From an uncultured Dehalococcoidales bacterium (GTDB lineage Bacteria; Chloroflexota; Dehalococcoidia; Dehalococcoidales; UBA1222): a stretch of DNA of 26,213 nt. Position numbers and translations under genes: made by a program. Shown one piece after another: positions 6,021-22,094 of the stretch. A model generated the notes under the pieces. That model saw nothing but the letters and a program-made list of their open reading frames with translations. It was not told the DNA's origin and ran no database searches. Numbering within the stretch: the first letter of the stretch is position 1; every line of letters starts with the position of its first letter. The stretch spans positions 1 to 26,213 of the forward strand of contig CAZPAL010000001.1 in assembly GCA_964584525.1 (NCBI GenBank), read 5' to 3'.

Positions 6021-6029
6021 AACGACAAA

Positions 6030-6038
6030 ATTATAACA
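6030..6038 (-). promoter_or_regulatory. Extended -10 promoter (TGtTATAAT) 9 nt before ATG 6020
   Basis: Reverse complement of ATTATAACA (6030-6038), with no SD. Confidence 0.6.
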
Positions 6039-6071
6039 CACCGGCTTCCGCTGAAAACGGGACGCGCCCCG

Positions 6072-6195
6072 CCCCGGATGCTTCAGCCACTCTTCGTGGC
6101 TTCCAGCATGGACACAGCTAAAGCGGGGAGTCCGAGAAGGGCGCCAGCCCCTCTCGGAAATATTTCCCCCTCTCTTCTCAAGAGAGGGGCAGGGG
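6072..6195 (-). repeat. Second copy of repeat modules A, C and B (inverted, permuted)
   Basis: rcA 6072-6111, rcC 6127-6156, rcB 6166-6195 (CCCCTCTCTT-ctc-AAGAGAGGGG stem). Lies in the divergent cca/kinase intergenic region. Confidence 0.9.
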
Positions 6196-6221
6196 TGAGT
6201 TCGTCATGAACCCTGCCGGGG

Positions 6222-6251
6222 TTGTTAAAGGCCGGGCCTTTAACCTATAAT
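6222..6251 (+). promoter_or_regulatory. Sigma70-like promoter (TTGTTA-N18-TATAAT) overlapped by a perfect 21-bp palindrome
   Basis: GTTAAAGGCC-g-GGCCTTTAAC at 6224-6244, TATAAT at 6246-6251, and SD AAGGAG before ATG 6279. Confidence 0.55.
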
Positions 6252-6278
6252 CCTTGCCATCACCATTGAAGGAGCACC

Positions 6279-6839
6279 ATGGGAGTTATCGCTATCGTGG
6301 GCATGGCCGGAGCAGGCAAATCCGAGGCCGCCGCCGCGTTTGAAAAACAGGGGTTTACCCGCATCAGGTTCGGCGACACCACCGATACAGAACTGAAAAG
6401 GCAGGGCATGGAAGTAAATGAAGCCAACGAGCGCAAGATGCGCGAGGCGCTCAGGCAGCGCTACGGCATGGCCGCCTACGCGGTGCTCAACCTTTCACGC
6501 ATAGACATGGCGCTTAAAACAGCCCCGGTGGTCATCGACGGCCTCTATTCGTGGGAGGAATACATATCCCTCAAGGATTATTTCAGCCAGCGTTTCCTGG
6601 TGGTGGCGGTGTGGGCTTCGCCCGAAGTGCGCTACGGGCGGCTGGCGGTGCGCGCGGTGCGCCCGCTGACGGAAGCCGAAGCCTTCAGTCGTGACAACGC
6701 CGAAATAATCAAACTCAACAAGGGCGGCCCCATCGCCATGGCGGATTACACCATCATCAACGAAGGTTCTTTGAAAGACCTGGAGAGAAATTGCCGCAAG
6801 CTGGCCTCCGGATTGAAAAAAAGCCATGAGCCGGCCTGA
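6279..6839 (+). CDS. P-loop NMP-kinase-fold protein (archaeal-type dephospho-CoA-kinase-like/AAA family), 186 aa
   Basis: [12 protein letters not shown] Walker [24 protein letters not shown] and ADYTIINEG. The substrate cannot be determined from sequence. Confidence 0.8.
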
Positions 6840-7299
6840 CGCGGACCAGTATTTTCTGAAAATTGCGGCGGTGGTGGCCGAACGCTCCACCTGCCTGCGC
6901 CATCACGTGGGCGCGGTGGCGGTGAGGGACAAGCATATCCTGTCCACCGGTTACAACGGCGCTCCTTCGGGCGTGCCGGACTGCCTGAGCCTGGGATGCC
7001 TGCGCAACCAGCTCAACATCCCTTCAGGCACGCGCCACGAAACCTGCCGCGCTGTCCATGCCGAGCAGAACGCCATCATCCAGGCCGCTCTGCACGGGGT
7101 CAGCCTGGAGGGGGCCACCATCTACTGCACGCACACGCCCTGCATACTGTGCGCCAAGATGCTGACCAATGCCCGCATCGCGCGTTATGTGAGCTTCGGC
7201 AAATATGCCGATGATGCCTTCGTGGAGTTGTTCCAGACTGCCGGTATCCGGTATGAACGGTTGCCCTGCCCGGCAGTGGAAATAGGGTTCCTGGAGTAG
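6826..7299 (+). CDS. dCMP deaminase / deoxycytidylate deaminase family, 157 aa
   Basis: [24 protein letters not shown] and PCILCAKM zinc motifs. Overlaps the upstream kinase by 14 bp. Confidence 0.93.
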
Positions 7300-7312: not shown

Positions 7313-7960
7313 TCAGCTCATCAGCTTCAGGCGCGCCAGCGACCACACCGCATCCAGCAGCACCGGGCGCTCCGGAGCGATGCTGCGGAACCAGGCCTGC
7401 CAGGCGGAGTACTGCCCGCAATCGAAAGCGAGCAGGCGGCGCAGGCTGTTCTCGTTGACGTCTTTCATATGGAACGATGGTTCCGGAAAGCGGTCGCCCC
7501 CAGTGATGGTCGGAGCCACGTAATGCAGGTAGTCGTCGCGAAAAAACGACTGCAGGTACAGGATGACAACCCCGTCCAGCGTCACGTGTAAAAAAGGGGA
7601 CAGGCGGCAGGATTCGTCAGCCGGCAATATCTGGCTGCTTTCCACGTATTCTTTGAGGAAAACATTGACTGCCTGCTGGGCTTCACCGTAGCTGACGCTG
7701 CCCCCGCTGCGGGATTTGACCTGCTGGAGGAACGACTGCACGAAGCGGTGGTGACAGGCATCGAACTCTTCCAGCGAGGAGACCGGCCTGAACTCCTGCG
7801 AATACTGCCAGGCCAGCTCCTGCAATTTGGGCAGGAAGTTGCGCTCCATCAAGCGCGACAGCCTGGACAGCAGAATCGGCCCGGCCTCGAACCCGCGCCG
7901 TTTTTCTTCATTCTCGCGCTCGCGGCAGCAGCGGATGAGGTTTTCGTAATCGCACATCAT
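7313..7960 (-). CDS. Hypothetical protein, about 215 aa, translationally coupled to mgsD
   Basis: ATG 7960 overlaps the mgsD stop (ATGA). It fills the gap to the deaminase. Motif-like segments: SYGEAQQAVNVFLKEY, LHVTLD, YSAWQAWFR. Confidence 0.75.
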   Translation of the reverse strand: MMCDYENLIRCCRERENEEKRRGFEAGPILLSRLSRLMERNFLPKLQELAWQYSQEFRPVSSLEEFDACHHRFVQSFLQQVKSRSGGSVSYGEAQQAVNVFLKEYVESSQILPADESCRLSPFLHVTLDGVVILYLQSFFRDDYLHYVAPTITGGDRFPEPSFHMKDVNENSLRRLLAFDCGQYSAWQAWFRSIAPERPVLLDAVWSLARLKLMS

Positions 7961-10032
7961 ATTTTTTCTGAAATGGGGGGGCATGGCGGCAGTATCAATT
8001 CGGATACGGCACGGGCGAACCCTTCCGGCCCTACCCCTTTGACCTTCAGTACCCGGCCGGCATTGATTTTATTCCAGTGGCGCCGCCCGTTCTGAACCAG
8101 CATCGGGTAGTCAACCCTTTCCAGCATGGGGGCGTCGTTTTCGGTATCTCCGAGCCCGAAGGTCTCAATCTGGCCGTAATTCAGTTTGAAGAGCTCATTC
8201 AGAATCTGTACCGCCTTGCCCTTGTCGGCTCCCTGGTTGGCCTCGAAGAAACGGCCGCCGAAGACTACGTGCAGGCCCTGTTTGCGGATGAAGTCCAGCA
8301 TCACCTCGATTTCCCGCCGGGTGCCGGGCAGGATGATGGTCTCGCTGTACTCCCTCTCCTTGGCCAGCTGGGCCATCTTGAGGCTGAGGTCGGTATGGCG
8401 CGCCACCTCTTCAACCGTCATGTCCCCGAAAGACAGAATTTCCTTCCCTGCCTCCTCCGCCGCCAGTTTTAGCCGCTGCCGGATTTCAGCATATGGCACG
8501 CCCAGTTCAATCAGATAGTAATCGCCGCTGACGCGGTCATAGGTGAAGGGGAAACGGAAATAGTCCTTGGGAATCAATATCGCCCCGCCGTTTTCGACGA
8601 TGAAGGGGTCACACACTTCCAGTTCCTGCCGGTAAACGAGTTGCTCGCTGCGTGTTTTGGCGGAGCAGAACACGGTTGGGATTTTCCGGGACTGCAGGCT
8701 GCGCAGGGCTTCCAGCGCAGCGGTGTAGGAATAGCTCACCGGGTGTAACAGCGTCCCGTCCAGGTCGGTGTAGACGATTTTACGGATTGTGCTCGAGGGA
8801 GCGCGGGGCGCCAGGCGGCCTTCCATTACCCAGTCGTCCGGAACCGCTATTTTGGCCAGGTGCCGGTCAAGGGCGCTCATCAGGGTTGTCAAATCCGCCT
8901 GGGCGGGCGGGGGGATCAGGCGTTGAACCGGCACCTGCTCTTCCTCTCCTTCTCCCAGGCAGGACATAGTCCTGAGTTGGTCCATAATCATCTTGCGGGT
9001 TGAAGGCTCGCAGGCCGCGCTGTGATAAATTACCGACAGGCTGGGCAGCAGCATGTCCTGGAGCAGGTGTTCGGAGTCTCCCCGGTCTTCGTGGAGGTGG
9101 GGGTTGACGGTTTCGGTCTGAATTATGTCAACGCCCTTCTCGGTGGCTGTTTTATCGCATATGGGCAGGATGCCGCCGAATTGTTCGAACACCGAGACCA
9201 GTTCCTGGGTTTCGACGCCGTAACCGGTGGCATATGTCAGCCGCATGGCCAATTCCATGCTCATGGCATGCTCCCCGGCGTTGGCTGTTTTGATGATTTC
9301 AGTTTCGAAGCGGCCCTTGGTGGACAGGAAATGGTTGATATGGCGGTTGGTAACCTCGGAAACCCGCCCCCATTTTTTGAAATAGATATCGGTGGTGATT
9401 TTGGGCTTGTAGCGCCACAGGATGCGCACCATCGAGAAGGGCGACTGGGCCAGGGTAAACCCCAGCGCGTAGTGCTTGGCGTATTCCCAGACAGCCCCCG
9501 GAATGAAGTTGTCGGTGTCGATCCCACCGACGTATTCCTTTTCGAGCAGTTTAGCCAGCAGGATGCCGGTAATCATGCCCTCGCTTTTTCCGCTGCGGAT
9601 AAACCCCTGGTCGTCGAGCAGTTCGGCGTAACCCGCCTGTTCGATGGCCTGAGCCATGAAGGGGTCTTTCTGGTGGACGATGAGTGCCCGGCGCTGGGTG
9701 GCCTGGCAGAAGCGGGTAAGTATGTCCTGCTCTATCTTGAAGGTGTCTATCTCTTCGCGCTGGCTGTTGGAAACCACGATGATGGTGCAGTCATGGGGGA
9801 TGCCGCTCAGCACCCCCTCGAACAGCTTCAGGTCTTCGTTCATGGTGGGCAGCACGATAGCCATCTTGCGCTCGACGGCTTCAATGGCTTCGCGCTCGAT
9901 GCGCTGCGTTTCCGTGCTTTCCCTGGCGCCGGGCATGGGCTTGGTGCCGGAATCCAGTTCCACCACGCGGCGCACGCCCTGGATGCGGACCGAACCCAGA
10001 TGTTCAAATGCTCTCATTGCTTCTATGCGCAA
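7957..10032 (-). CDS. mgsD: Bifunctional mannosyl-3-phosphoglycerate synthase/phosphatase (mannosylglycerate synthesis), about 691 aa
   Basis: N-terminal GT55 synthase: GIPHDC.IIVVSNS, SGKSEGM, IDTDN, RILWRYKPK, KWGRVSE, NAGEHAM, NPHLHE. C-terminal HAD phosphatase: YTDLDGTLL, CSAKT, VENG, DKGKAV, LGDTEND. TTG start at 10032 with AAGGAGG 7 nt upstream. Confidence 0.93.
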   Translation of the reverse strand: MRIEAMRAFEHLGSVRIQGVRRVVELDSGTKPMPGARESTETQRIEREAIEAVERKMAIVLPTMNEDLKLFEGVLSGIPHDCTIIVVSNSQREEIDTFKIEQDILTRFCQATQRRALIVHQKDPFMAQAIEQAGYAELLDDQGFIRSGKSEGMITGILLAKLLEKEYVGGIDTDNFIPGAVWEYAKHYALGFTLAQSPFSMVRILWRYKPKITTDIYFKKWGRVSEVTNRHINHFLSTKGRFETEIIKTANAGEHAMSMELAMRLTYATGYGVETQELVSVFEQFGGILPICDKTATEKGVDIIQTETVNPHLHEDRGDSEHLLQDMLLPSLSVIYHSAACEPSTRKMIMDQLRTMSCLGEGEEEQVPVQRLIPPPAQADLTTLMSALDRHLAKIAVPDDWVMEGRLAPRAPSSTIRKIVYTDLDGTLLHPVSYSYTAALEALRSLQSRKIPTVFCSAKTRSEQLVYRQELEVCDPFIVENGGAILIPKDYFRFPFTYDRVSGDYYLIELGVPYAEIRQRLKLAAEEAGKEILSFGDMTVEEVARHTDLSLKMAQLAKEREYSETIILPGTRREIEVMLDFIRKQGLHVVFGGRFFEANQGADKGKAVQILNELFKLNYGQIETFGLGDTENDAPMLERVDYPMLVQNGRRHWNKINAGRVLKVKGVGPEGFARAVSELILPPCPPISEKI

Positions 10033-10217
10033 GGTTTTGCCTCCTTGTGTGGGAACGGCTGGTGAAGATTCCCGGGGTTCCCAGTCCATAAAAGTCGGCG
10101 CAACGCACCGGCGTAAAGCCATGGATTTGTGCGGCGCTTAACAATCACTCGCGGCAGCGGACGCCGCTCACTCCACAATTTAACACACCTCCGGGTCTAT
10201 GTAAACCCCGGCAAATA

Positions 10218-10252
10218 GAGAAGCCGCGCCCGTAACCGGGGTGCGGCTTCTC
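10218..10252 (-). terminator. Probable intrinsic terminator after the lipoprotein gene
   Basis: GAGAAGCCGC / GCGGCTTCTC 10-bp stem with further inner pairs, followed by TATTT on the minus strand, about 24 nt after the stop. Confidence 0.6.
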
Positions 10253-10275
10253 GGGGCACTACGGCCGGAGTGGAT

Positions 10276-10788
10276 TTACTGGAAAGTGAACTGGTAATCC
10301 GGGCGGCTGTAACCGAAAGAATCATCGGTGATGGTAAAGGTGCAGTGGCTGATGAGGATATACCCCAGCACCGGGCCAGCGAATACTCCTTCCACATCCA
10401 CGGTGTAACCCACCTTGAGCGGCATCATCAGTTCGAGATAATCGGTGCGGAAGCGGAATCCCTGGTTGGAGATGAATTGTTCAGGGCTTGGAGGTTTGTA
10501 CACTTCGCTCATATCCTCGATTTTGACATTGCGCACCAACAGCAGCTTGCCGGAATACCTGGCGGCTGTCCCCGCCGGGTCGGAAGCGTATTCGCCGGCC
10601 AGGTCCGCCATTTCGATTTCGACGGCTTGCGGCTGGACCGGAGTGGTGGCGGTTGGGATGGTGGTGGTGGCGGCGGGAGTGGCTACCTCCAGTTGCGTCT
10701 GGCTGGTACCGGCAGGCGCGCACGCAGCCAGCGCCATGAGTAACAGAGCGGCCGAAAAGCCTGCTCCCATAATCCTGTGTGTTTTCAT
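10276..10788 (-). CDS. Lipoprotein with OB-fold (tRNA_anti-like) domain, 170 aa
   Basis: Signal peptide with LAAC lipobox, Thr/Pro linker, and the LAGEYASDP..TAARYSGKLLLV pattern. SD GAGGAG 6 nt upstream. Confidence 0.75.
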   Translation of the reverse strand: MKTHRIMGAGFSAALLLMALAACAPAGTSQTQLEVATPAATTTIPTATTPVQPQAVEIEMADLAGEYASDPAGTAARYSGKLLLVRNVKIEDMSEVYKPPSPEQFISNQGFRFRTDYLELMMPLKVGYTVDVEGVFAGPVLGYILISHCTFTITDDSFGYSRPDYQFTFQ

Positions 10789-11674: not shown

Positions 11675-12430
11675 TCACGAAAAAAGCGTGCGGATGCGGT
11701 TTTCCAGAGCGGCGGCTGCCGGGTTGAACCTGGAACGCGGGCGGGGGGAGGCGACTTCCAGTATGCCCCTGATGGAAGCAGGCCGCCCCGAGAGCACGAT
11801 TACCCGGTCAGCCAGATAGACCGCTTCCTGGGGGTCGTGCGTAACCCACACCATGCTTTTGCCGGTGCGCGCCCGGATGGAGATGATTTCATCCTGGAGT
11901 TCCTCGCGCGTGCGCACATCCAGCCCGGTGAGGGGTTCATCCAGTAAAAGAACATCTGGATTGGTAACCAGGGCGCGGGCCAGCGCCACCCTCTGGCGCA
12001 TACCGCCGGAAAGCTGGTGCGGGAACGCCCCGGTGAAGTCAGGCAGCGATACAATGCTCAGGGCGTCCGATATGGCGGCTTGCTCTTTCGCTCCCAGCTC
12101 CTCCCCGCGCAGTTCGAAGGGCAAACCGACATTGCCGGCGGCGGTGCGCCAGGGAAGCAGCCTGGGTTCCTGAAAGACCATGCCGATATGCTGCCGGTGC
12201 TGGCGTTGAGTGCCGACCTCATGCCCCATCAGCCGGACGCTTTCCTGCCTGGAGGGGAGCAGGCCGGCCACGATGCGCAGCAGGGTGGTTTTACCACAGC
12301 CGGAAGGGCCCAGTATACATACGATTTCCCCCTGGTAGATGCTGAAGGTTATGTCCTCCAGCACCTTGAGGCGGTCGAAACTGTGCTCTAGGCGTTCAAC
12401 CTTCAGGATTTCTGTTCGGTTGGTTTCCAC
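11675..12430 (-). CDS. ABC transporter ATPase, NitT/TauT (SsuB/TauB-like), 251 aa
   Basis: GPSGCGKTT, VFQEPRLLPW, LSGGMRQR, LLLDEP and VTHD. Confidence 0.96.
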   Translation of the reverse strand: METNRTEILKVERLEHSFDRLKVLEDITFSIYQGEIVCILGPSGCGKTTLLRIVAGLLPSRQESVRLMGHEVGTQRQHRQHIGMVFQEPRLLPWRTAAGNVGLPFELRGEELGAKEQAAISDALSIVSLPDFTGAFPHQLSGGMRQRVALARALVTNPDVLLLDEPLTGLDVRTREELQDEIISIRARTGKSMVWVTHDPQEAVYLADRVIVLSGRPASIRGILEVASPRPRSRFNPAAAALENRIRTLFS

Positions 12431-13167
12431 TGGCGTATATACTTCCTGTCGATATAATTGAAAAGACCGTAATCCGTCATGAGCAGGATGAGCGCGAAGG
12501 CCAGCGTCCAGCCGAAAACCTGCGTGATACGGTAGCTTTCGAAGGCGATGGTGAGCATGTACCCCATGCCCGAAGCCGCGCCGAAAACTTCACCCAGAAT
12601 CACCACTTTCCATGCGACCATGGCTGAACTCCTGACAGCGGCGAAGAGGTAGGGATAGAGCATGGGCAGAATCACCCTGCCGAGTATGCGGGCGCGCCGG
12701 CTGGTATACATGGAGGCCATTTCTATCAGGTTGTTATCCAACTCCTTCATGCCCTCCCAGATATTGATGATGAAGAAGGGAGCGACGGCCACGGCCACCG
12801 CCAGGATGGGGGTGGCATCCGACAGCCCGAACCACAACACGAAAACCAGCGCCCAGCAGATGGTGGGGACCGATTGCAGAAGCGGATAAATCACCGTTCG
12901 CACAGCCGTGCGCAGCAGGTTGGAGTAGCGCGTGGCGATACCTAAAAGCGCGCCTAAAGACGAACCCAGCGCCATGCCCATCACCACGCGGTAGGTGGTG
13001 ATGCCGATGTGTTCCCAGTTGCGCGCCGAAAAGACGATGTCCATGAAAGCGAGCAGCGTCTGCCACGGGGTGGGGAAAAGCACGGATTCGGACAGCGCAG
13101 CCACCGCCCACCACAGCAGCCAGAAAATGGCGGTGACCAGCGCAGTCAGCAGTGCTTTTTTTACCAT
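12403..13167 (-). CDS. ABC transporter permease, NitT/TauT family, 254 aa
   Basis: LFPTPWQT, ITTYRV..G...G...G, EAA-like LIEMASMY..R..ILGRVILPMLYPYL, and WKVVILGEV. Confidence 0.93.
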   Translation of the reverse strand: MVKKALLTALVTAIFWLLWWAVAALSESVLFPTPWQTLLAFMDIVFSARNWEHIGITTYRVVMGMALGSSLGALLGIATRYSNLLRTAVRTVIYPLLQSVPTICWALVFVLWFGLSDATPILAVAVAVAPFFIINIWEGMKELDNNLIEMASMYTSRRARILGRVILPMLYPYLFAAVRSSAMVAWKVVILGEVFGAASGMGYMLTIAFESYRITQVFGWTLAFALILLMTDYGLFNYIDRKYIRQWKPTEQKS

Positions 13168-14168
13168 TTTTCGAACATAGCGCTTGCCTGCGGCAGGTTG
13201 CCTATGATTCCGCGGTCTTTGACGAAGCCGAAGATGGACATCACGCTGGTTTCCAGTTTGCCTTCCACCGCATCGAAAGTCACCCGGTAGTGCAGCCGGT
13301 AGGCATTCTGATAAAACTCGGCGCTGCCGCCGAATTCGGCCACGTACTTTTGCGACAGCTCAACCAGCCGCTCCTCTCCGTATTGCTGGCTTTCCTTGAG
13401 CAACTCATATATGGCTTTGGCTGTCTGGCGATTGTTTTCGAGGTACCCGGCCTGTACGGCCAGGAACGACGCCGGGTTATAGGTGCCGTACTTCTGCTCG
13501 AAAGCCTGGTCCACGTTCCACAGCACCTTGAAATCGGTGCTGTAGAAAGTTTGCACCGAAGGGTCGCCCAGCAGCAGGGCGGCGTCAATATCGCCCTTGC
13601 GCAGGAATTCGATGAGCTGCGGCGGGGCGCCGTCAATCATGGTGAGCTGGCTTTCATCGATGCCGTACTGGCTTTTGAGCATGCCCAGGAAGGTGCTGGC
13701 AGTGCCGCTCTGAAGGCCGGGCACGCCCACCCGCTTTCCCGCCAGGTCGGCGGGCGAACTGAGAGAACCGCCCTGGCGGATATAAACCACGGCCACGCCG
13801 CTGGTGGCCTCCAGCCCGGTATGCGCCAGATAGACACCCATCGTTTTGAGCGCCACTGCGCTTCTCTCGGTGGCCACCGCGAAAGCGGCGGTGTTCATGG
13901 CGCCGATGACATAATTGCCGGCCAGCATCTGGTCGTCGAATTTGAGCGACTGGTCTACGGTCACATTCACCTTGTCCGAGGTGACCTCGCCGCTGGTGAT
14001 GCCGTAAGTGCACAGCCAGCTCCCGAAATAGGGCGCCATGACGATGCTCACCGTCGGTGTTTCGGTGGGTGCGGTGCGGCAGCCGGCAACTGACGGAAGC
14101 ACCAGCAGGCAGCCGAGCAGAAGGCAAAGCACGAGGGTCCACTTTTTATGAGTCAATTTTCCCTCCAT
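13161..14168 (-). CDS. ABC substrate-binding lipoprotein, SsuA/THI5-like (type 2 periplasmic-binding fold), 335 aa
   Basis: VAGC lipobox, SPADLAGKRVGVPG, and LRKGDIDAALL. Starts 4 nt after the prenyltransferase stop. Confidence 0.9.
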   Translation of the reverse strand: MEGKLTHKKWTLVLCLLLGCLLVLPSVAGCRTAPTETPTVSIVMAPYFGSWLCTYGITSGEVTSDKVNVTVDQSLKFDDQMLAGNYVIGAMNTAAFAVATERSAVALKTMGVYLAHTGLEATSGVAVVYIRQGGSLSSPADLAGKRVGVPGLQSGTASTFLGMLKSQYGIDESQLTMIDGAPPQLIEFLRKGDIDAALLLGDPSVQTFYSTDFKVLWNVDQAFEQKYGTYNPASFLAVQAGYLENNRQTAKAIYELLKESQQYGEERLVELSQKYVAEFGGSAEFYQNAYRLHYRVTFDAVEGKLETSVMSIFGFVKDRGIIGNLPQASAMFEKW

Positions 14169-14172
14169 CGTG

Positions 14173-15120
14173 TTATGCGCTATTTGTTAACCCGTCCATC
14201 AAAAAAGTGAGGCTCAGAGTAAGGGGAGAAAGCATCAATCCCAGAAAGCCTTGGCGGCAGGCAAGTTCCAACCCCTGGCGGGTGCGCCAGCGGCCGTTGA
14301 GCATGGGTACCAGGCTCCAGCCCAGGTACAGCGCCGGCCCCAGGTTGAGGGCAGCCCAGGGCGAGCGCGTGATGAGGAAGGTGGGGATGAAAAGCAGGAT
14401 GGCGGCTGCCATCAGTACGATGTAAACGCGGCTCATGCGTTCCCGCCCGAAGATGACGGCCAGCGTGCGCTTGCCGGCGGCGGCGTCGGCTTCGGCATCC
14501 GGAAAAGCGCGCAGCAGCTTGATGGCCGGCACGGCGGCGAACTGGGTTGAAGCCACCGCTACCGGCAGCCAGCTCAGGCCGGCCTGTGTGTAATAGATGG
14601 TGATGATGAGCAGCCCGTAGCCCGCCATCATGAATATTTCCCCCAGGCCGCGGTAGGCGGCCTGGATAGGCGGCGCGGTATAGAACCAGCCAATCAGCAT
14701 TCCCGCCGCGCCCAGCGGGATGGTGAGCGGCCCGGTATTGAAATGAAACTGCAGCAGCAATCCGAGCGGCGCCGCCAGCAAGAAGAACAGCAGCGAAGCT
14801 AAAAGCGCGTGCCTGAGCGGGATGAGCCCTTCTACCAGCACCCGCGTGCCTCCGGTGCTGGTCAAGCCCTGCCTGCGGCCTCCCAGCCGCCCCAGATTGA
14901 TGCGGTCGGTTTCATAATCGAAATATTCATTGGAGATGAAGGCGCCGTTGGCGATAAAAAAAACAGAAATGAGCGTGATAAGGAAAACCGGCCAGGAGAA
15001 AATGCCGGTAGCCCACCATGCCAGCACGCCGCCCAGCGCAATGCGGAAGACGACGGCGATATGTTTAGGCAGTTCCTGGATTTCTATCCATGCCCTAAGA
15101 TTGGATTTGAACGGTGACAT
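14173..15120 (-). CDS. UbiA-superfamily prenyltransferase, MenA-like (copy 1), about 315 aa
   Basis: NEYFDYETD (Asp-rich motif I), FYTAPP..AYRGLGE and RAFPDAEADAAAGKRTLAV (motif II); highly hydrophobic. I chose start 15120 by alignment with copy 2; ATG 15126 is an alternative. Confidence 0.88.
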   Translation of the reverse strand: MSPFKSNLRAWIEIQELPKHIAVVFRIALGGVLAWWATGIFSWPVFLITLISVFFIANGAFISNEYFDYETDRINLGRLGGRRQGLTSTGGTRVLVEGLIPLRHALLASLLFFLLAAPLGLLLQFHFNTGPLTIPLGAAGMLIGWFYTAPPIQAAYRGLGEIFMMAGYGLLIITIYYTQAGLSWLPVAVASTQFAAVPAIKLLRAFPDAEADAAAGKRTLAVIFGRERMSRVYIVLMAAAILLFIPTFLITRSPWAALNLGPALYLGWSLVPMLNGRWRTRQGLELACRQGFLGLMLSPLTLSLTFLMDGLTNSA

Positions 15121-15382
15121 GTTCATTTTCTGATTCGGCCGGGCCGGCAATTTCCCGGGCCGGCTAAACGGCGCCCCATTTTTCACCTGTGCCGGAACGC
15201 AACATAACTCAGGGCAATATATGATAGCAGAGAGCCTGCCTTTTTGTCATGAGCCCCGGGGGCCTACATCGAGTCAAACCCCGCATTGCCGGGTCTGCCT
15301 CTCTGTATGCGCCGGGGTGGTAAAAAGGGTAAAATGCAAGCGGCGGCAATTCGGCTGCCGGAGTGCCGGGGAGGGGTTTCCG

Positions 15383-16594
15383 ATGAAGATGGCGCAGCAG
15401 GAACTGGACGAAGCGCGCAGGCTGGAGCGGGTGTTCATTTTTCACCGGTGGCTCTACGTTCCGGCTGTTCTGCTCACCGCTTGGCTGTATGGCTGGCTCA
15501 GCCAGCCGCTGGTGATGCTGGCGTCCGGCGGGCTGGCGGCTGCCAATATGGCAGCCCATCTGATAAACGGCAGGCTGGGCACCCTGCGCGCCCAGGCGGC
15601 GCTGGGCGCCTGCCTCTTCGCGGTAGACAGCCTGGCAGCCTGGGCGTTGATAATCCTGGGCATGTCTAACGGCCAGGGCGCAGTCTATGTTGTATTCGCC
15701 CTGATTATCGTCGAGGCCGCCACGCGTTACAGCCTGTGGGGTAGCCTGGCCACGGACATCGTTTTCGCGCTGGGTTTGTACCTGCTCTGGTTTGCGGGGC
15801 CGCGGAACCCGGGTGAAAACTTTACGGCGGCGAACTATCTGGTGGCGGTGGGAGTGCTGTCGTTTGTGTCCCTGATGGTGGGCATGGTCGCTCGCGAATG
15901 GCGCAAACAGCGTCGCTTTGCCGAGCAACTGGCGGCGGACAAGGCTTCATTGCTGGAAAGGCGGCGCATCTCCAACGAACTGCATGACAGCGTTCTCAAG
16001 AGCCTGCAGGGACTGGCGCTCGAGGCGCATGCCCTTGAGCGCGACAGCGCCAGCGGCGCCGCACGGTCGGCGGGAGAAAGGGCCGGCTATATCGAGGATG
16101 TCTGCGCGCAGCTCAGCCAGGAGATAAGGGGTGTCATTTTAGGACTGCGCGATGAGGGGGCGGGTGAGGATTTAGTCCGGCGCATTACCGGCCTCCTCAA
16201 GGCGTGGAGCGAAAAAACCGGCATCGCCGCCGGGTTCACTCATGGCGGAGATGTGCCGCCGCTGCCGCCCAGGATGGCGCATGACCTGCTGAGGGTTATC
16301 GAGGAAGGGCTGGCTAACATCGCCCGTCATGCCGGAGCGTCGCGGGCCGAGGTTTTCCTGGAAGTCAGCGAAAACCATCTCCGGCTGATGATTCGGGATG
16401 ACGGCTGTGGTTTCGCGGCGGATGCGGGGGAGATTTATGCGTTCGTGCGCCAGGGCAAGCTGGGGCTGGTTTCCATGAAAGAGCGGGTGGAGCTGGCAGG
16501 GGGGCGTTTTACCATCGAAAGCGGGCCGGGGGGGACGGTGTTGACCGCTGGTATTCCCCTGGCCGGTGGGGGTCCTGCGGAGACTGATAAATGA
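15383..16594 (+). CDS. Membrane sensor histidine kinase, HisKA_3 (NarX/DesK-like), about 403 aa
   Basis: About 6 N-terminal TM helices with no large extracytoplasmic loop. ERRRISNELHDSV H-box, EGLANIARHA, DDGCGF, GLVSMKER. Start 15383 after GGAGGGG. Confidence 0.93.
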   Translation: MKMAQQELDEARRLERVFIFHRWLYVPAVLLTAWLYGWLSQPLVMLASGGLAAANMAAHLINGRLGTLRAQAALGACLFAVDSLAAWALIILGMSNGQGAVYVVFALIIVEAATRYSLWGSLATDIVFALGLYLLWFAGPRNPGENFTAANYLVAVGVLSFVSLMVGMVAREWRKQRRFAEQLAADKASLLERRRISNELHDSVLKSLQGLALEAHALERDSASGAARSAGERAGYIEDVCAQLSQEIRGVILGLRDEGAGEDLVRRITGLLKAWSEKTGIAAGFTHGGDVPPLPPRMAHDLLRVIEEGLANIARHAGASRAEVFLEVSENHLRLMIRDDGCGFAADAGEIYAFVRQGKLGLVSMKERVELAGGRFTIESGPGGTVLTAGIPLAGGGPAETDK

Positions 16595-17241
16595 ACATTA
16601 CCAGGGTGTTCATCGTCGACGATAATTTTATCGCCCGCCGCGGGTTACGCAGCACGCTGGAAACGGAAGCGGGCATAAACGTGGTGGGCGAGGCTTCGAC
16701 AGGGGTAGAAGCCATCGGCAGCCTGCCCGTTTCAGATGTGGATGTGGTCCTTATGGATATCCGTATGCCTGAATTGGGAGGCATAAATACCGCTGCCGAG
16801 TTGCTCAGGCAGGCGCCCGATTTGAAAATCCTGATGCTGACGGTGGTAGACGACCCGTTTACGCTGGCCGGCGCGCTGGCGGCAGGGGCCGCGGGTTACC
16901 TGGTTTACGGCCATTTTTCCCCGGAGCAACTGGCGGAAGCGGTTTTCCGGGTGGCCGCAGGGGAAACGGTATGCCTTCCGCCTCTGACGGACCTTTTCCC
17001 GGTAGAGGGGGGAGAAGCGGCGGAGGCGGGAATTGGGGCACGGATTTCCGCCCTCACGCCGCGCGAGCTCGAAGTTCTGAAGCTGATAGCCGCCGGCAGG
17101 GAAAACCGGGAGATTGCTCAAGCCCTGGGCATCGAAGAGAAAACGGTCAAGAATCACATCAACAGCATATATTCCAAACTGGGGATTTCCAACCGGCAAC
17201 AGGCGCTGCTGTGTATGCTGGATGCACGTTTTAGAAGTTGA
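16591..17241 (+). CDS. NarL/LuxR-family response regulator, 216 aa
   Basis: IVDD, LMDIRMP (phospho-acceptor Asp), and LTPRELEVLKLIAAG..N.EIA..L.I.EKTVKNHINSIYSKL HTH. ATGA overlap with the kinase. Confidence 0.95.
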   Translation: MNITRVFIVDDNFIARRGLRSTLETEAGINVVGEASTGVEAIGSLPVSDVDVVLMDIRMPELGGINTAAELLRQAPDLKILMLTVVDDPFTLAGALAAGAAGYLVYGHFSPEQLAEAVFRVAAGETVCLPPLTDLFPVEGGEAAEAGIGARISALTPRELEVLKLIAAGRENREIAQALGIEEKTVKNHINSIYSKLGISNRQQALLCMLDARFRS

Positions 17242-18175
17242 TGAACCCGTCCAGCACGAAGGTGACTATCAAAGTCAGCGGCGTTAACAGCAGCCCCTGA
17301 AATCCCGTGCGGCAGGCGGCCTCCAGTTGCTGGCGGTTGTGCCAGCGGCCTCTCAGCATGGGCACCATGCTCTGCGCCAGGAAGACAGCCGGGATGACGT
17401 TGATAAGAGCGAAGGGGGAGCGCGTCACCACCGCAGCGGGGATGAAGGCTAGAATCGCCGCCCCAGTCAGGATGGCATAAAGGCGGCTGGCGCGCGCTTG
17501 CCCTATAATAACCACCAGCGTCCTTTTGCCGGCCTGGGCGTCGGCGCGCGAATCGGGGAAATTGCGCAGTATTTTGAGCGCCGGTACGCTGAGTATGCGC
17601 GGCAGGCAGATGAGCAGCGGAAACCAGCTCGCGCCGGCCTGGATATAGTATGCCGTGAAAACCAGGGCGGCGTAACCCAGCATCATGAAGAGTTCCCCCA
17701 TGCCCCGGTAGGAAGCCTTGACCGGCGGGTTGGAGTATCCGTAGGTAAAGAACAGCCCCGCCACCCCCAGCGGAATGGTCCACGCCCCGGTATTGAAGCC
17801 GAACTGGATGACCAGCCCCAGCGGCACGGTCAGCGCGAAAAATGCCATGCCCGCTATCAGTACATGGCGGCGTTTCAGCCGCCCCTGCACCAGCACCCGC
17901 GTGCCGCCGGTGGTGTCCAGTCCCATGCCGCGCTTCTCGCCGCCGATGCGCTCGCGGTTCAGCCGGTCGCTTTCATAGTCCTGGTATTCGTTGGTAAGAT
18001 AGATGCCGTTGGCCATGAAAAATACCGCCAGCAGGCCGGCGATGAATACGCCCCAATGGAACTGGCCGGCGTGGTACCAGGCCAGCACCGAACCCAGCAC
18101 GAACGAAAAGACATCGTTGGAATGGCGGGGGAATTTTTGCACCTCAATCCAGGCCTTTAAACTGTTCGTGGACAT
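17231..18175 (-). CDS. UbiA-superfamily prenyltransferase, MenA-like (copy 2), 314 aa
   Basis: NEYQDYESD, YSNPP..SYRGMGE and RNFPDSRADAQAGKRTLVV. SD AAGGAG. Collinear with copy 1. Confidence 0.88.
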   Translation of the reverse strand: MSTNSLKAWIEVQKFPRHSNDVFSFVLGSVLAWYHAGQFHWGVFIAGLLAVFFMANGIYLTNEYQDYESDRLNRERIGGEKRGMGLDTTGGTRVLVQGRLKRRHVLIAGMAFFALTVPLGLVIQFGFNTGAWTIPLGVAGLFFTYGYSNPPVKASYRGMGELFMMLGYAALVFTAYYIQAGASWFPLLICLPRILSVPALKILRNFPDSRADAQAGKRTLVVIIGQARASRLYAILTGAAILAFIPAAVVTRSPFALINVIPAVFLAQSMVPMLRGRWHNRQQLEAACRTGFQGLLLTPLTLIVTFVLDGFINF

Positions 18176-18282
18176 GGCTCCTTTTCTTTCTGTGCGATAT
18201 GGGCAGGCGCGTATTCCAGGGTCAAGCCCGCACGGCTGTCAACCGCTGCTCGCGCAGGCCGGCCAGCAAAGCGGACGAGTGT

Positions 18283-19992
18283 TTATTTTTTGCCGAAGAG
18301 CGCATTCCAGGCGGCTGAAAAATAGCGCAGGCGTATCAGCCCTACCGGGATTTCGAGTTCCAGCCGCTCTGCCGCCTGGAATCCGTTGACGCTGTCCATC
18401 TCCGGTTTCAGCCGGGCGATGCCGGCGCTGTCCTCGTTTTTCATCAGCGTGTCGATTTTCTCCTCCAGCACCCTGGCGCGCCGGATGCGCTCCAGTTGCT
18501 CGTCGGCCGCTTTCTGGGGAATCTGCCCGTACCTGGCCTTAAGCGCCGTCAGGCGGGCAATGGCTTCGTAAGTGACTTCGGTAATTTCATCGCGGCTGAG
18601 CCACTGGGTCTCGTAATTGATGCTGTATTTCCAGCTGGGCAGGGTCAACGCCCGGCGGTGCTCCTCCAGCGTTTTAAAGCGCAGGCGGAAACCGTAACGT
18701 TCCGGGTATTCGAAGGCCAGCGAGCCGGGCGCCATGAAAGGCGCCTGGTGCCCCATGAACAGGAAGAGGCGTTTATCTGCCTTGAATTTTTGCAGCAGGT
18801 GTTCGCAGTAGTCCACCGTGTCCAGCACCGATTGCCTGTCCTGTTTTTGCAACCCTATCATGAAGAATATTTCCAGCCGGCTGGCTCCCGCCTCTAGGGC
18901 GGCGCCAATCATCTTTTCCATGTCTTCATTCGAGAAATCCCGTCCCAGCGAAAGGCGGCGCACCTCCGGGTCGTGCGACTCCGGCGACATGTCCAGCGAA
19001 AAACCGGGTGCCGCTTCGGCCATGCCAGCGATAAACTGCGGGGACATGGGGTTGAAGGCCTCGAACATCAGCGTGTTTTTTACCCGCCTGGCCTTGATGA
19101 GCGACAGCAGCCGCTCGGCGCGCTCCATTCCGCCTTCGCGGATGTCGCCCACAATCAGAATCGGCCCGCGGCTGATGCGGCTGATGTTGAGCACATCCTT
19201 GAAGATGTCCTCCGGGCTGCGCCGGGCTACCTCGGTACGGTTGGCAAAACCGCTCATGGCGTCGCGCGCCCCCGCGCAGAAAATACAGTTATAGACGCAG
19301 CCGCGGCAGGTGAAGACGGCCGTCACCGGGTATTTCAGCCAGCCCTTGAAAGGAACCACGCTGGCCAAGTCGCGGTAACGTAGCACCTGCCTTACCATCA
19401 GGCCGTAATGGTTACCCATCACATGGCTGATATCGGTTGGGACATAGCTGAAGGGGTTTTCATGCACGGCGCCGGCGCCGTCTTTCCAAACCAGGTTGGG
19501 AACCGCGCTAAAATCACCCTCTTTGAAGGCCCGCATGAACCTGAGCAGGGGCTCCTCGGTGGAATCGCCGCGCATGACGAAATCAACTTCGGGATATTGG
19601 ATGAGTTCCCTGTAGAAACGCGAAGCGGAGAAACCGCCGAAGATTATTTTGGAATGCGGATGGTGTTTTCTGACCAGTCCGGCAATTTCTATCGAGCCAT
19701 GGGCGTGCACCATCCAGTGCAGGTCTATGCCGAAGATGGGTGCTTCGAGCTTGCGGATGAACTCCCCGGCATCGAAACGCGCGTCTCGCAGCATGCGCCA
19801 GGCCAGGTTGACGATGCGCACCCTGAAACCGGCTCTTTCCAGGTATTCGGCGATGCTGGAAAGCCCCACCGGATACATTTCGAATACCGGCGTGGAAAGC
19901 ACCAGGTCGGATACCGGGCCGTAGAGCTGGGGAATGCGGCGGAAATCATATACATGCGGGGCATGCAGCAGAATTATGTCCGGGTTAGCCAT
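18283..19992 (-). CDS. Cobalamin-binding domain / radical SAM protein (resembles the TIGR04190 Ta0216 family), about 569 aa
   Basis: N-terminal B12-binding Rossmann-like region: YPVGLSSIAEYL, IIFGGFSAS, VDFVMRGD. CxxxCxxC = CVYNCIFC; SPESHD. The start DIILLHAPHVYDFR..LYGPVSD resembles TIGR04190 as I recall it (no HMM run). Start set at 19992. Confidence 0.88.
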   Translation of the reverse strand: MANPDIILLHAPHVYDFRRIPQLYGPVSDLVLSTPVFEMYPVGLSSIAEYLERAGFRVRIVNLAWRMLRDARFDAGEFIRKLEAPIFGIDLHWMVHAHGSIEIAGLVRKHHPHSKIIFGGFSASRFYRELIQYPEVDFVMRGDSTEEPLLRFMRAFKEGDFSAVPNLVWKDGAGAVHENPFSYVPTDISHVMGNHYGLMVRQVLRYRDLASVVPFKGWLKYPVTAVFTCRGCVYNCIFCAGARDAMSGFANRTEVARRSPEDIFKDVLNISRISRGPILIVGDIREGGMERAERLLSLIKARRVKNTLMFEAFNPMSPQFIAGMAEAAPGFSLDMSPESHDPEVRRLSLGRDFSNEDMEKMIGAALEAGASRLEIFFMIGLQKQDRQSVLDTVDYCEHLLQKFKADKRLFLFMGHQAPFMAPGSLAFEYPERYGFRLRFKTLEEHRRALTLPSWKYSINYETQWLSRDEITEVTYEAIARLTALKARYGQIPQKAADEQLERIRRARVLEEKIDTLMKNEDSAGIARLKPEMDSVNGFQAAERLELEIPVGLIRLRYFSAAWNALFGKK

Positions 19993-20048
19993 AAGGCAGC
20001 CTTTCAGGGGGATTTTTACCTGTACCAAACCATTGAAACAGTAGTTGA

Positions 20049-20078
20049 ATTATAATCTCAAGACGGGATTATTAGCAA
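20049..20078 (-). promoter_or_regulatory. Candidate sigma70 promoter for the radical SAM gene (TTGCTA-N18-TATAAT)
   Basis: Reverse complements of TAGCAA (20073-20078) and ATTATA (20049-20054). A second TATAAT on the + strand (20099-20104) faces the PLP enzyme, giving back-to-back promoters. Confidence 0.5.
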
Positions 20079-20179
20079 AACCGGGCTTTCCGGCGTATTA
20101 TAATTGCTATGCGGGCAGACGGCCGCGAACCGCCGGCTCCCGCTCGAATCTGTTTTTCGACTGCCAGAAGGAGCGAAAC

Positions 20180-21319
20180 ATGAAGTTTGAAACCCGGGCC
20201 ATGCACTCCGGCCGCCGTCCGGACAAAGCCTACGGCGCGGTTTCCAGCCCCATTTATCAGACCTCGACCTTCGTCTGGGACGACGTGGACAAAACGCGCG
20301 GCTACGACTATTCGCGCTCGGCCAATCCCACGCGGCAGGTGCTGGAGGAGACACTGGCGGCGCTGGAGAGCGGGCGGGCTGCTTTCGCCTGCGCCAGCGG
20401 CATGGCCGCCGAGATCACCGTCATGCATCTTTTAAGCGCGGGCGACCACGTCATCGCCACGCATGACCTTTACGGCGGCACCTACCGGCTGCTGGCTGAA
20501 ATCATGCCGCGCTTCGGTATCGAAACTACTTTTGTACGCATGGACAACCCGGCTGACATCGAAGCCTCCCTGCGCTCCAATACGCGTATGGTGTGGCTGG
20601 AAACCCCCTCAAATCCGCTGCTTGGCATTACCGACCTGGCCATGGTGACCGGTTTCGCCCGGCAGCATGAACTGCTTACCGTGATGGACAACACCTTCGC
20701 CACCCCCTATCTCCAGCGGCCGTTCGAATACGGCGTGGATATCGTGGTGCATTCTACCACCAAGTATCTCAACGGGCACTGCGACGTGGTCGGCGGTGCC
20801 ATCGTCACCCGCGATGAAGAAATGACGCGCCGCATAGCCTTTCTGCACAATGCCCTGGGGTCTATCGCCGGGCCCTTCGACTGCTGGCTGGTGTTGCGCG
20901 GCATCGAGACGCTGGCGGTGCGCATGCGCCAGCATGTCGCCAATGCCCAGGCGGTGGCCGAGTACCTGGAAAAACACTGCGCGGTGGAGAGGGTGTATTA
21001 TCCCGGCCTGGAATCGCACCCCGGGCACGCCCTGGCCGGGCGGCAGATGAGGGGCTTCGGCGGCATGGTCTCCTTCGAGCTCAAAGGCGGGGTGGCGGCG
21101 GTGAATTCCTTCCTGCGGGGCATCAAGCTCATCTACCTGGCGGAATCGCTGGGAGGCACGCATTCGCTGGCCGAATACCCGGCCAGCATGAGCCATGCCA
21201 CCATGACGCCCGAATACCGCCGCAGCGCGGGCATCAAGGATAATCTGGTGCGGCTCTCGGTGGGGTTGGAAAACATCGAAGATTTATGGGCGGACCTGGA
21301 GCAGGCGCTCACTGCCTGA
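20180..21319 (+). CDS. Cys/Met metabolism PLP-dependent enzyme (cystathionine gamma-synthase/lyase family), about 379 aa
   Basis: PIYQTSTF, YSRSANPT, SGMAA, DLYGGT, ETPSNP, DNTFATP, HSTTKYLNGH (PLP Lys), AESLGG and RLSVGLE. SD AAGGAG before ATG 20180. Confidence 0.93.
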   Translation: MKFETRAMHSGRRPDKAYGAVSSPIYQTSTFVWDDVDKTRGYDYSRSANPTRQVLEETLAALESGRAAFACASGMAAEITVMHLLSAGDHVIATHDLYGGTYRLLAEIMPRFGIETTFVRMDNPADIEASLRSNTRMVWLETPSNPLLGITDLAMVTGFARQHELLTVMDNTFATPYLQRPFEYGVDIVVHSTTKYLNGHCDVVGGAIVTRDEEMTRRIAFLHNALGSIAGPFDCWLVLRGIETLAVRMRQHVANAQAVAEYLEKHCAVERVYYPGLESHPGHALAGRQMRGFGGMVSFELKGGVAAVNSFLRGIKLIYLAESLGGTHSLAEYPASMSHATMTPEYRRSAGIKDNLVRLSVGLENIEDLWADLEQALTA

Positions 21320-21358
21320 GATTAGAAGCACGGTGGGCTATGCCCTGTCCACTATTAT

Positions 21359-21389
21359 AGAGAACAGGAGTGTGTCGCTCCTGTTCTCT
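21359..21389. terminator. Bidirectional terminator-like hairpin between convergent genes
   Basis: AGAGAACAGGAG-tgtgtcg-CTCCTGTTCTCT perfect 12-bp stem. Confidence 0.65.
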
Positions 21390-21416
21390 GCGTTAATGCC
21401 GGCTTACTAGCAGTAT

Positions 21417-21983
21417 CTAACGGCTGAAGCTTTCCAAGTGGTCCAAATACCCGTTGAGGCTGGTATAGGCCAGCATGCCGGCGGCAATCACCAGTAAAAC
21501 GATTCCCACCCACTGCGCCAGTCGCCCCAAACCAGGGTTTCGATTGGCGAAAAACGTAGCGGGCAGTGCGAAAATCCCGGGCAGGCCGGCAAATATGAGT
21601 GCCAGTCCGGTCGGCACAGGGTTCTCCCCTAACCCCAAGTCAATAATACGGTAAGCGATAACCAGTACCACCAGGCCGGCCATGGCCCCGTAAACACCGA
21701 GCGGAGTGAAACTCCAGGATTTGTGTATGGACCAGGCTGCCCCCAGCAAGAGTGCCCCTATCATGATTGAGGGTTCGCCGAAGGCTATATTCCAAGCACC
21801 GGGCATAGGCCAGGTAAATGTCATGTGTAACCCGGTAACCAGTGATACAAAGCCGGTGATGGTGAAGGCGGGGATGAAATATTTATTATTTGTCGCATAG
21901 ATACCGCGGTATATGAATACGGCGAGTAAAAAGAGGGCTACGGCGATATTGGCGTTCATCAGGGTCAGATAAACGATAGGCAT
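21417..21983 (-). CDS. DUF981-like integral membrane protein, 188 aa
   Basis: YLTLM, GLHMTFTWPMPGAWNIAFGE pattern; about 6 TM. SD AAGGAG. Confidence 0.8.
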   Translation of the reverse strand: MPIVYLTLMNANIAVALFLLAVFIYRGIYATNNKYFIPAFTITGFVSLVTGLHMTFTWPMPGAWNIAFGEPSIMIGALLLGAAWSIHKSWSFTPLGVYGAMAGLVVLVIAYRIIDLGLGENPVPTGLALIFAGLPGIFALPATFFANRNPGLGRLAQWVGIVLLVIAAGMLAYTSLNGYLDHLESFSR

Positions 21984-22094
21984 TAGTCACTCTCCTTTTC
22001 TTTGCTTAACCAACCAGGTGCAATCCCTTGAATTTACTTTCGCAGTTCCACCTCCTTCTGTTATCAGTTCAGTATCGGCTAAAGCGCAGCGCTC

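Follow-up and report, generated by a model that had tools for sequence, protein, structure and literature searches.

The B12-binding radical S-adenosylmethionine (SAM) enzymes known from lipid metabolism, HpnR, GrsA/GrsB, Gmm, Cgm, and Ted, act on unactivated carbon atoms in the isoprenoid lipids of membranes (PMC11214058; bioRxiv 10.1101/2025.10.20.683597). Analysis of a 26,213-nucleotide stretch of DNA from an uncultured Dehalococcoidia bacterium (contig CAZPAL010000001.1; the whole stretch is called the window below) revealed a gene encoding another B12-binding radical SAM protein. This protein belongs to the TIGR04190 family, and its gene is followed on the same strand by a gene encoding a UbiA-family prenyltransferase (UbiA-1). 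The nearest named proteins and loci are those of Dehalococcoidia metagenome-assembled genomes (MAGs). TIGR04190 itself has no assigned function, so that membership leaves the role of the enzyme unexplained. Extra methyl groups are introduced into prenylated naphthoquinones, the type of substrate that we propose, by the radical SAM enzymes MenK, MqnK, and MenK2; these belong to class C (HemN-like) and lack a cobalamin domain. The gene neighborhoods of TIGR04190 relatives suggest that the window enzyme acts with the UbiA-family prenyltransferase on a prenylated lipid and that a divergent gene for a pyridoxal phosphate (PLP) enzyme on its other side is irrelevant to this function. On balance, and with no great confidence, we regard this reading as the probable one.

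Architecture of the TIGR04190 protein

The radical SAM protein reached 597.7 bits with the TIGR04190 model (B12_SAM_Ta0216; cut-off, 500 bits) of NCBIfam. The match covered residues 5 to 521 of 569, and by this profile the protein is a full-length member of the family. Pfam recognized a B12-binding domain (PF02310; 54.7 bits) and a Radical_SAM domain (PF04055; 41.5 bits) and nothing else; TRAM, MiaB N-terminal, and HemN-type domains were not found in the protein by Pfam. As read from the sequence, the protein has the architecture of a class B (cobalamin-dependent) enzyme, in which an N-terminal B12-binding Rossmann domain precedes a radical SAM barrel with a CxxxCxxC motif. The runner-up NCBIfam model was that of the hopanoid C-3 methylase HpnR (TIGR04367), which gave 47.5 bits versus a cut-off of 650.

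The protein contains exactly five cysteines. Four of them, C229, C232, C236, and C239, are located in the segment TCRGCVYNCIFC, which starts at residue 228, and the fifth is C396. Comparison of 52 family sequences revealed that the three residues of the CxxxCxxC motif (C232, C236, and C239) are invariant (52/52). Of these sequences, 21 have C229 and 19 have C396, and four members have only three cysteines in total. Since only C232, C236, and C239 are conserved, there is no auxiliary cluster, which speaks against sulfur insertion of the MiaB type. MiaB and RimO share the radical SAM core with the window protein but need an N-terminal auxiliary [4Fe-4S] cluster, coordinated by three conserved cysteines, and a C-terminal TRAM domain, and the window protein has neither. 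Judged by these features, MiaB-type methylthiolation by a TIGR04190 protein is unlikely.

A second conserved element is the DLHW..H motif (residues 90 to 96), which in the window protein is part of the sequence DLHWMVHAHG beginning at residue 90. H92 and W93 were found in all 52 sequences, D90 in 51, and H96 in 50. DLHW..H, GG, and CxxxCxxC are the family-wide invariant features, and the window protein shares them along with the architecture of the family. In a profile search of the PDB, the DLHW..H loop directly preceded the segment aligned to residues 82 to 220 of TokK. The residue under the corrin ring presumably lies within this part of TokK, and by analogy the loop may be positioned close to the lower corrin face. 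This placement would lend indirect support to the binding and catalytic use of cobalamin, both of which are predicted for the protein. The set of five cysteines with one distal member, the DLHWMVHAHG sequence, and the lack of a MiaB-type auxiliary-cluster or TRAM domain had already been described in an earlier reading of the window (the first-pass annotation), and all three descriptions proved to be correct.

A structural model was generated with AlphaFold (AF2) from the 52-sequence alignment and had a mean predicted local distance difference test (pLDDT) score of 91.5 and a predicted template modeling (pTM) score of 0.91. Searching the PDB with this model by Foldseek revealed TsrM (PDB entry 6wte; E value, 9e-20; template modeling [TM] score, 0.58), MgmA, TokK, and OxsB as the best matches, followed by AprD4 and MiaB. 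TsrM is a cobalamin-dependent tryptophan C2-methyltransferase, and the carbon that it methylates is an aromatic sp2 carbon. However, it is only 16% identical to the window protein, and its substrate is a soluble amino acid in an antibiotic pathway. The structural match to MiaB and RimO was weaker (E values, 1e-11 to 1e-8). A plain sequence search of the PDB with the radical SAM protein gave no match, and TokK was the sole match in the profile search (E value, 1.6e-4). Many family members have a hydrophobic and basic C-terminal tail, which may be a faint hint of membrane association.

Several known enzymes were considered as possible identities and were either rejected or judged unlikely. The B12-binding domain and the absence of a HemN-type Pfam domain place the window protein in class B and rule out a class C enzyme such as MenK or MqnK; HemN (PDB entry 1olt) matched the AF2 model weakly and in part (TM score, 0.29). 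The tetraether synthase Tes (GDGT-MAS) is presumably represented by a structure in the PDB, which returned no sequence match, and it is taken here to contain several clusters, in contrast to the five cysteines of the window protein. GrsA homologues are reported to be missing from Chloroflexota MAGs (PMC11868695), which makes identity with GrsA unlikely, the two being set apart by this reported distribution and not by direct sequence comparison.

Gene neighborhoods of TIGR04190 relatives

The family is large, 5,468 of the 8,000 candidates scored having an E value of ≤0.001, and is widely distributed among anaerobic Bacteria and Archaea. It is ubiquitous in Dehalococcoidia and also occurs in Anaerolineae, Actinomycetota, and Spirochaetota, as well as in Methanomassiliicoccales, Bathyarchaeia, Thermoproteota, Korarchaeota, and Asgard archaea; Thermofilaceae and Desulfurococcales are further carriers. 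To describe the gene context, 236 loci with TIGR04190 relatives were taken from species-representative genomes and grouped into about 50 clusters at 60% identity. Members of this context set score 622 to 801 bits on TIGR04190, and two outlying clades score 376 to 392 bits. Final counts were made over all open reading frames (ORFs), and a gene within 3 kb was taken as a neighbor. Because much of the locus set comes from few orders, raw locus counts overstate independence, and cluster counts are the fairer measure. A UbiA gene was found at 84 of the 236 loci (12 clusters), a gene for a UbiE-type methylase at 33 loci (8 clusters), and a gene for a cis-prenyltransferase of the UppS family at 66 loci (8 clusters). 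About 25 of the clusters have at least one of these three neighbors.

In most relatives, a UbiA gene directly adjoins the radical SAM gene. The gap between the two is 4 to 36 bp in relatives, versus 107 bp in the window. The radical SAM gene and UbiA-1 are probably co-transcribed, a view that is based on the DNA sequence; all sequencing runs containing this sequence are DNA metagenomes. The first-pass annotation had presented the radical SAM gene as an orphan, a description that has to be dropped, as the UbiA-1 gene follows on the same strand and the gap between them contains no terminator-like site.

Dehalococcoidia carry two sister paralogue lineages with opposite gene orders, and three genomes carry both. 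In lineage A, whose members are at least 69% identical to the window protein, the UbiA gene is located directly downstream of the radical SAM gene. In lineage B (52 to 57% identical), it is located directly upstream, and at 16 loci a gene for a UbiE/COQ5 methyltransferase (Pfam, 189 bits) is positioned beside or between the two. At 11 lineage B loci (e.g., L021, positions 6122 to 6991), a gene encoding a SAM hydroxide adenosyltransferase (SAM hydrolase, DUF62; Pfam, 175 bits) was observed directly upstream of the UbiA-(UbiE)-radical SAM genes. The radical SAM-UbiA pair also persists at L239 and L240, two loci with 77% identity, where genes for an NMT1-type binding protein, a permease, and an ATPase are located about 3.6 kb away. 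At these two loci (3784 to 7172 and 8001 to 10700), the UbiA gene is followed by three tandem nitroreductase genes, and a second TIGR04190 paralogue, divergent to the pair, is accompanied by an ABC-2 exporter gene and a diacylglycerol-kinase-family gene. Two contigs labeled Methylococcales (L033; 54% identical) and Terriglobia (L043; 78%) carry Dehalococcoidia-like loci. Contigs labeled Acutalibacteraceae, Faecalibacterium, Bifidobacteriaceae, and Ruminococcus (L083, L085, L100, and L101) carry loci that are 68 to 76% identical to the Thermoplasmata query and resemble those of Methanomassiliicoccales. All of these look like binning or labeling errors in public MAGs.

Similar gene sets were found in other phyla. 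The combination of UbiA, UbiE, and radical SAM genes recurs in Bathyarchaeota, and the pairing with UbiA recurs in Spirochaetales. In Thermoproteota and Korarchaeota, a methylase gene is located directly upstream of the radical SAM gene and is in one case preceded by a prenyl-diphosphate synthase gene. Actinomycetota have fusions of the radical SAM protein to UbiE/COQ5, namely P0123 (826 aa) and P0160 (893 aa), which score 235 to 240 bits with Pfam Ubie_methyltran; the P0123 fusion is one continuous ORF in its locus (L191). Two further predicted fusions, of TIGR04190 with TatC (P0124; 814 aa) and with PGA_cap (P0133; 1,060 aa), may be real or may be gene-calling artifacts.

The archaeal members adjoin genes for prenyl-diphosphate synthases, geranylgeranyl reductases, and complex I. 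In Methanomassiliicoccales, the TIGR04190 gene is located directly behind the gene for an UppS-family cis-prenyltransferase at nearly every locus. About 1.3 kb further on, L081 (7122 to 14599) and most of the loci L082 to L146 of this order have the start of a complex I-like (Fpo/Nuo) operon, the first genes of which encode NuoB, C, D, and H. A Pfam census of the two nearest genes per side in 33 diverse representatives gave polyprenyl_synt (5), cis-prenyltransferase (4), geranylgeranyl reductase (4), UbiE (3), UbiA (3), and NuoA/NuoB (4/3) among the commonest families. At one locus of Methanoperedenaceae GB37 (L237, 12915 to 17671), a cobalamin-biosynthesis cluster (CbiC, CbiA, CbiG, and TP_methylase) is found at a distance of about 3 kb from the TIGR04190 gene, which is preceded by ArsA-type ATPase fragments and a phytoene-desaturase-like flavoprotein gene.

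The prenyltransferase partner was examined in the same way. UbiA-1 scored above the threshold of the Pfam UbiA superfamily (107 bits), and its best NCBIfam models were those of MenA (1,4-dihydroxy-2-naphthoate polyprenyltransferase), with 54 to 86 bits versus cut-offs of 102 to 555. The sole sequence match in the PDB was the menadione prenyltransferase UBIAD1 (8djk; E value, 5.6e-6). Apart from these top hidden Markov model and PDB matches, UbiA-1 resembles MenA and UBIAD1 in retaining both Asp-rich motifs and the GKRTL segment. It differs from them in belonging to a subfamily with motifs of its own, NEYxDYxS, [ST]GG[ST], and FPDxEADxxxG[RK]R, which are common to the UbiA partners of TIGR04190 genes. 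These partners form two types, which are not split along the bacterial-archaeal divide.

The PLP protein scored above the threshold of Pfam Cys_Met_Meta_PP (519 bits). Its best NCBIfam model was that of cystathionine gamma-synthase (PRK07811; 503.4 bits versus a cut-off of 513), and the models for cystathionine gamma-lyase, cystathionine beta-lyase, and methionine gamma-lyase all gave 440 to 480 bits. A comparison of the window PLP protein with all ORFs of the 236 TIGR04190 loci gave no match (0/236), and hence none within 3 kb. The pairing is kept only in the metagenomic contig L238, where the radical SAM protein is 91% identical and the whole gene order is the same. At 77% identity (L239 and L240), the ABC-2 exporter gene and the second TIGR04190 paralogue occupy the upstream position instead. 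These results are best explained by an ordinary sulfur amino-acid enzyme that is a physical neighbor only and is there by chance. The partner relevant to the radical SAM enzyme is the prenyltransferase and not the PLP enzyme. The first-pass annotation had proposed a class B C-methylase, with the PLP enzyme supporting SAM supply, and had considered a quinone as its substrate. The general idea of a class B enzyme for a prenylated quinone-like compound agrees with the class B fold, the UbiA partner, and the UbiE/COQ5 neighbors and fusions; the supporting role of the PLP enzyme had to be abandoned, as the PLP gene is not conserved beside the family, one of the findings that the first-pass annotation itself had listed as counting against its proposal.

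Candidate substrates and reactions

The conserved partners of the TIGR04190 genes build prenyl chains, attach them to head groups (UbiA), and methylate quinone rings (UbiE), and the TIGR04190 enzyme would therefore carry out a further, chemically harder modification of the same prenylated compound. In the proposed pathway, the radical SAM gene and the downstream UbiA gene would form one operon. The prenyltransferase would place a polyprenyl chain on an aromatic head group in the membrane, most likely one of the naphthoquinone type, and the TIGR04190 enzyme would then modify the prenylated lipid by means of its [4Fe-4S]/SAM site and cobalamin. A C-methylation beyond the reach of ordinary SAM methyltransferases such as UbiE would be the most likely reaction. 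The second UbiA gene of the window (UbiA-2), which is located beside a NitT/TauT-type ABC importer, suggests that the head group is imported and not made; UbiA-2 and the importer may thus supply a scavenged head group.

The TIGR04190 protein is most likely a cobalamin-dependent radical tailoring enzyme, and specifically a C-methylase. C-methylation fits the commonest reaction of class B enzymes, the function of HpnR as the nearest characterized enzyme by sequence, and that of TsrM as the nearest by structure. The substrate is probably the naphthoquinone-like prenylated product of the neighboring prenyltransferase. A quinone-type substrate and methylation are the leading, still unproven, options within the general model, in which the lipid could be a quinone or another isoprenoid.

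Several observations weigh against this model or its details. UbiA-1 scores below the cut-off of every MenA model, with a best score of 86.3 bits versus 264 and with 54.1 versus 102.15 bits for TIGR00751, and the cluster of the window contains no UbiE gene. About half of the diverse clusters have no UbiA, UbiE, or cis-prenyltransferase gene within 3 kb, and several crenarchaeal, Methanoperedenaceae, and Asgard loci have uninformative neighbors. Class B enzymes also cyclize, desaturate, and form C-S bonds, so that methylation is the commonest option but not the sole one. Many carriers, such as Dehalococcoidia, Methanomassiliicoccales, and Thermofilaceae, are not known for menaquinone, and the substrate could therefore be another isoprenoid lipid. 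We know of no TIGR04190 member that has been experimentally characterized, and a literature search found no paper naming TIGR04190 or Ta0216. The search likewise gave nothing on Dehalococcoidia together with menaquinone, prenyltransferase, and radical SAM, and nothing relevant on methylmenaquinone with B12.

The enzyme could instead modify a non-quinone isoprenoid lipid, i.e., a polyprenyl- or dolichyl-phosphate carrier, a polyprenyl diphosphate, or archaeal ether lipids, by methylation, cyclization, or desaturation of the isoprenoid chain in the manner of HpnR, Grs, Gmm/Cgm, and Ted. The nearly constant position behind the cis-prenyltransferase gene in Methanomassiliicoccales favors this explanation, although this synteny comes from one order and thus represents few independent events. 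The trans-prenyl synthases and geranylgeranyl reductases among the archaeal neighbors point in the same direction, as do HpnR being the nearest characterized model and the occurrence in lineages not known for quinones (Thermofilaceae, Desulfurococcales, and Korarchaeota). The characterized archaeal lipid-tailoring enzymes of this kind are all B12 radical SAM enzymes (bioRxiv 10.1101/2025.10.20.683597; PMC11214058). However, an aromatic head group is indicated by the UbiE/COQ5 genes beside or fused to the radical SAM gene and by the MenA/UBIAD1-like character of the partner, and bacterial carriers do not make archaeal ether lipids. Moreover, TIGR04190 is ubiquitous in Dehalococcoidia, whereas GrsA homologues are reported to be missing from Chloroflexota (PMC11868695). 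A non-quinone lipid is thus a serious but rather unlikely alternative. That the neighborhoods are coincidental, and that the substrate is a soluble, unrelated compound (a peptide, a cofactor, or a sugar) and the family functionally heterogeneous, appears more doubtful still. The large share of clusters without an isoprenoid neighbor is in line with this possibility, and so are the ArsA-type ATPase, sulfatase, or cobalamin-synthesis genes beside some TIGR04190 genes and the sister clades below the TIGR04190 cut-off (e.g., P0243 and P0190, with 376 and 392 bits, respectively). Chance is nevertheless a poor explanation for an association with UbiA, UbiE, and prenyl-synthase genes that is found in several phyla of both domains, in varied gene orders, and with one type of fusion.

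The first-pass annotation had also raised the possibility that the enzyme methylthiolates a prenylated naphthoquinone to a methionaquinone-type product, with the PLP enzyme providing sulfide, methanethiol, or SAM. No enzyme has so far been assigned to the formation of methionaquinone or omega-cyclic menaquinone (bioRxiv 10.1101/2025.09.17.676790), the family takes its name from a protein of Thermoplasma, and the radical SAM and PLP genes stand back to back both in the window and in L238 (91% identical). B12-type C-S bond formation is formally possible by analogy with ThnL, a B12 radical SAM enzyme that is reported to form a thioether (PMC9407657). No positive support for methylthiolation emerged from the present analysis. 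The PLP gene is beside the family at none of the 236 loci, the family has three invariant cysteines only and neither an auxiliary cluster nor the MiaB N-terminal and TRAM domains, it is distributed far more widely than the known methionaquinone producers, and the promoter matches in the divergent gap are not above chance. Methylthiolation is therefore considered highly improbable.

Action of the TIGR04190 enzyme with its UbiA partner on a prenylated lipid remains the preferred reading. A bolder proposal, which we put forward tentatively and hold to be unlikely in its full form, is that TIGR04190, its own UbiA subfamily, and UbiE-type methylases constitute an unrecognized cobalamin-dependent route that makes or remodels a quinone-like redox lipid of the membrane in strictly anaerobic Bacteria and Archaea, including lineages regarded as lacking quinone pathways (Dehalococcoidia and Methanomassiliicoccales). 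Such a route could explain an orphan quinone modification, for example extra methylation of the thermoplasmaquinone type, methionaquinone, or a cyclized or otherwise altered side chain. The gene context gives an uncharacterized enzyme family a coherent lead across both domains of life. If the family tailors prenylated quinones or related lipids, a cobalamin-dependent class would be added to quinone biosynthesis, and organisms considered quinone-free (Dehalococcoidia and methyl-reducing methanogens) would carry a pathway for a prenyl-lipid cofactor. It would also provide a gene marker for modified quinones or lipids that serve as environmental biomarkers.

Organization of the window

The features of the locus are listed in Table 1. 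The ORF program had placed the radical SAM gene at 18283 to 20028 and the PLP gene at 20045 to 21319. The start of the radical SAM gene was set at the ATG at 19992 (MANPDIILLHAP), in agreement with homologues of 569 aa at 100% coverage. For the PLP gene, the ATG at 20180 was chosen, which is preceded by a GAAGGAG ribosome-binding site. The corrected starts yield exactly the divergent arrangement with a 187-bp gap that the first-pass annotation had described, and its TATAAT on each strand was found as well, in the form of two ATTATAAT boxes. TATAAT occurs on the plus strand at 20051 and 20099 and as its complement at 20049 and 20097; it can be read on both strands because both sites are the near-palindrome ATTATAAT. 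A scan for consensus promoters found one -35/-10 pair per strand inside the gap. Across positions 17000 to 21600, the scan gave 3 sites versus 2.1 ± 1.0 in shuffled sequences, and the promoters are therefore plausible but not above chance. No Rfam riboswitch was found in positions 14000 to 22000, the divergent gap included.

Table 1. Coordinates of the TIGR04190 locus and adjacent genes in the window
Feature	Positions	Strand	Basis or remark
TIGR04190-family B12-binding radical SAM protein, 569 aa	18283-19992	-	TIGR04190, Pfam, AF2 model, residue conservation
Cys/Met-metabolism PLP enzyme, cystathionine gamma-synthase/lyase type, 379 aa	20180-21319	+	Pfam, NCBIfam
Divergent intergenic region, 187 bp; contains two ATTATAAT boxes and, on each strand, one promoter-like -35/-10 pair	19993-20179	.	
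Spacer between radical SAM gene and UbiA-1, 107 bp	18176-18282	-	No terminator-like site inside
UbiA-family prenyltransferase 1 (UbiA-1), MenA/UBIAD1-like, 314 aa	17231-18175	-	Pfam UbiA, NCBIfam, PDB match
HisKA_3 sensor kinase and LuxR-type response regulator, between the two UbiA genes	15221-17241	+	
UbiA-family prenyltransferase 2 (UbiA-2), heads ABC-importer operon	14173-15186	-	55% identical to UbiA-1
NitT/TauT-type ABC importer, whole	11675-14168	-	Pfam/NCBIfam
NMT1-like binding protein of the importer	13161-14168	-	
Permease of the importer	12403-13167	-	
ATPase of the importer	11675-12430	-	

The arrangement of UbiA-2 and the ABC importer is identical in the close relative L238, and the importer probably belongs to the same module. 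The sensor kinase and response regulator pair is likewise kept in L238, and it is not kept in more distant relatives.

Further genes of the window were noted outside this cluster. A gene on the minus strand (7957 to 10122) encodes a 721-aa fusion of a mannosyl-3-phosphoglycerate synthase (Pfam, 476 bits) and an HAD phosphatase, which by its domain composition is a bifunctional synthase of the compatible solute mannosylglycerate. A similar bifunctional mannosylglycerate synthase has reportedly been described for Dehalococcoides. The plus strand carries a GHMP kinase gene (2734 to 3639), probably ispE of the methylerythritol phosphate (MEP) isoprenoid pathway, beside KsgA, and a gene for the acyltransferase PlsY (3652 to 4329). 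The GHMP kinase and PlsY genes are housekeeping genes for lipid precursors with no evident tie to the radical SAM cluster.

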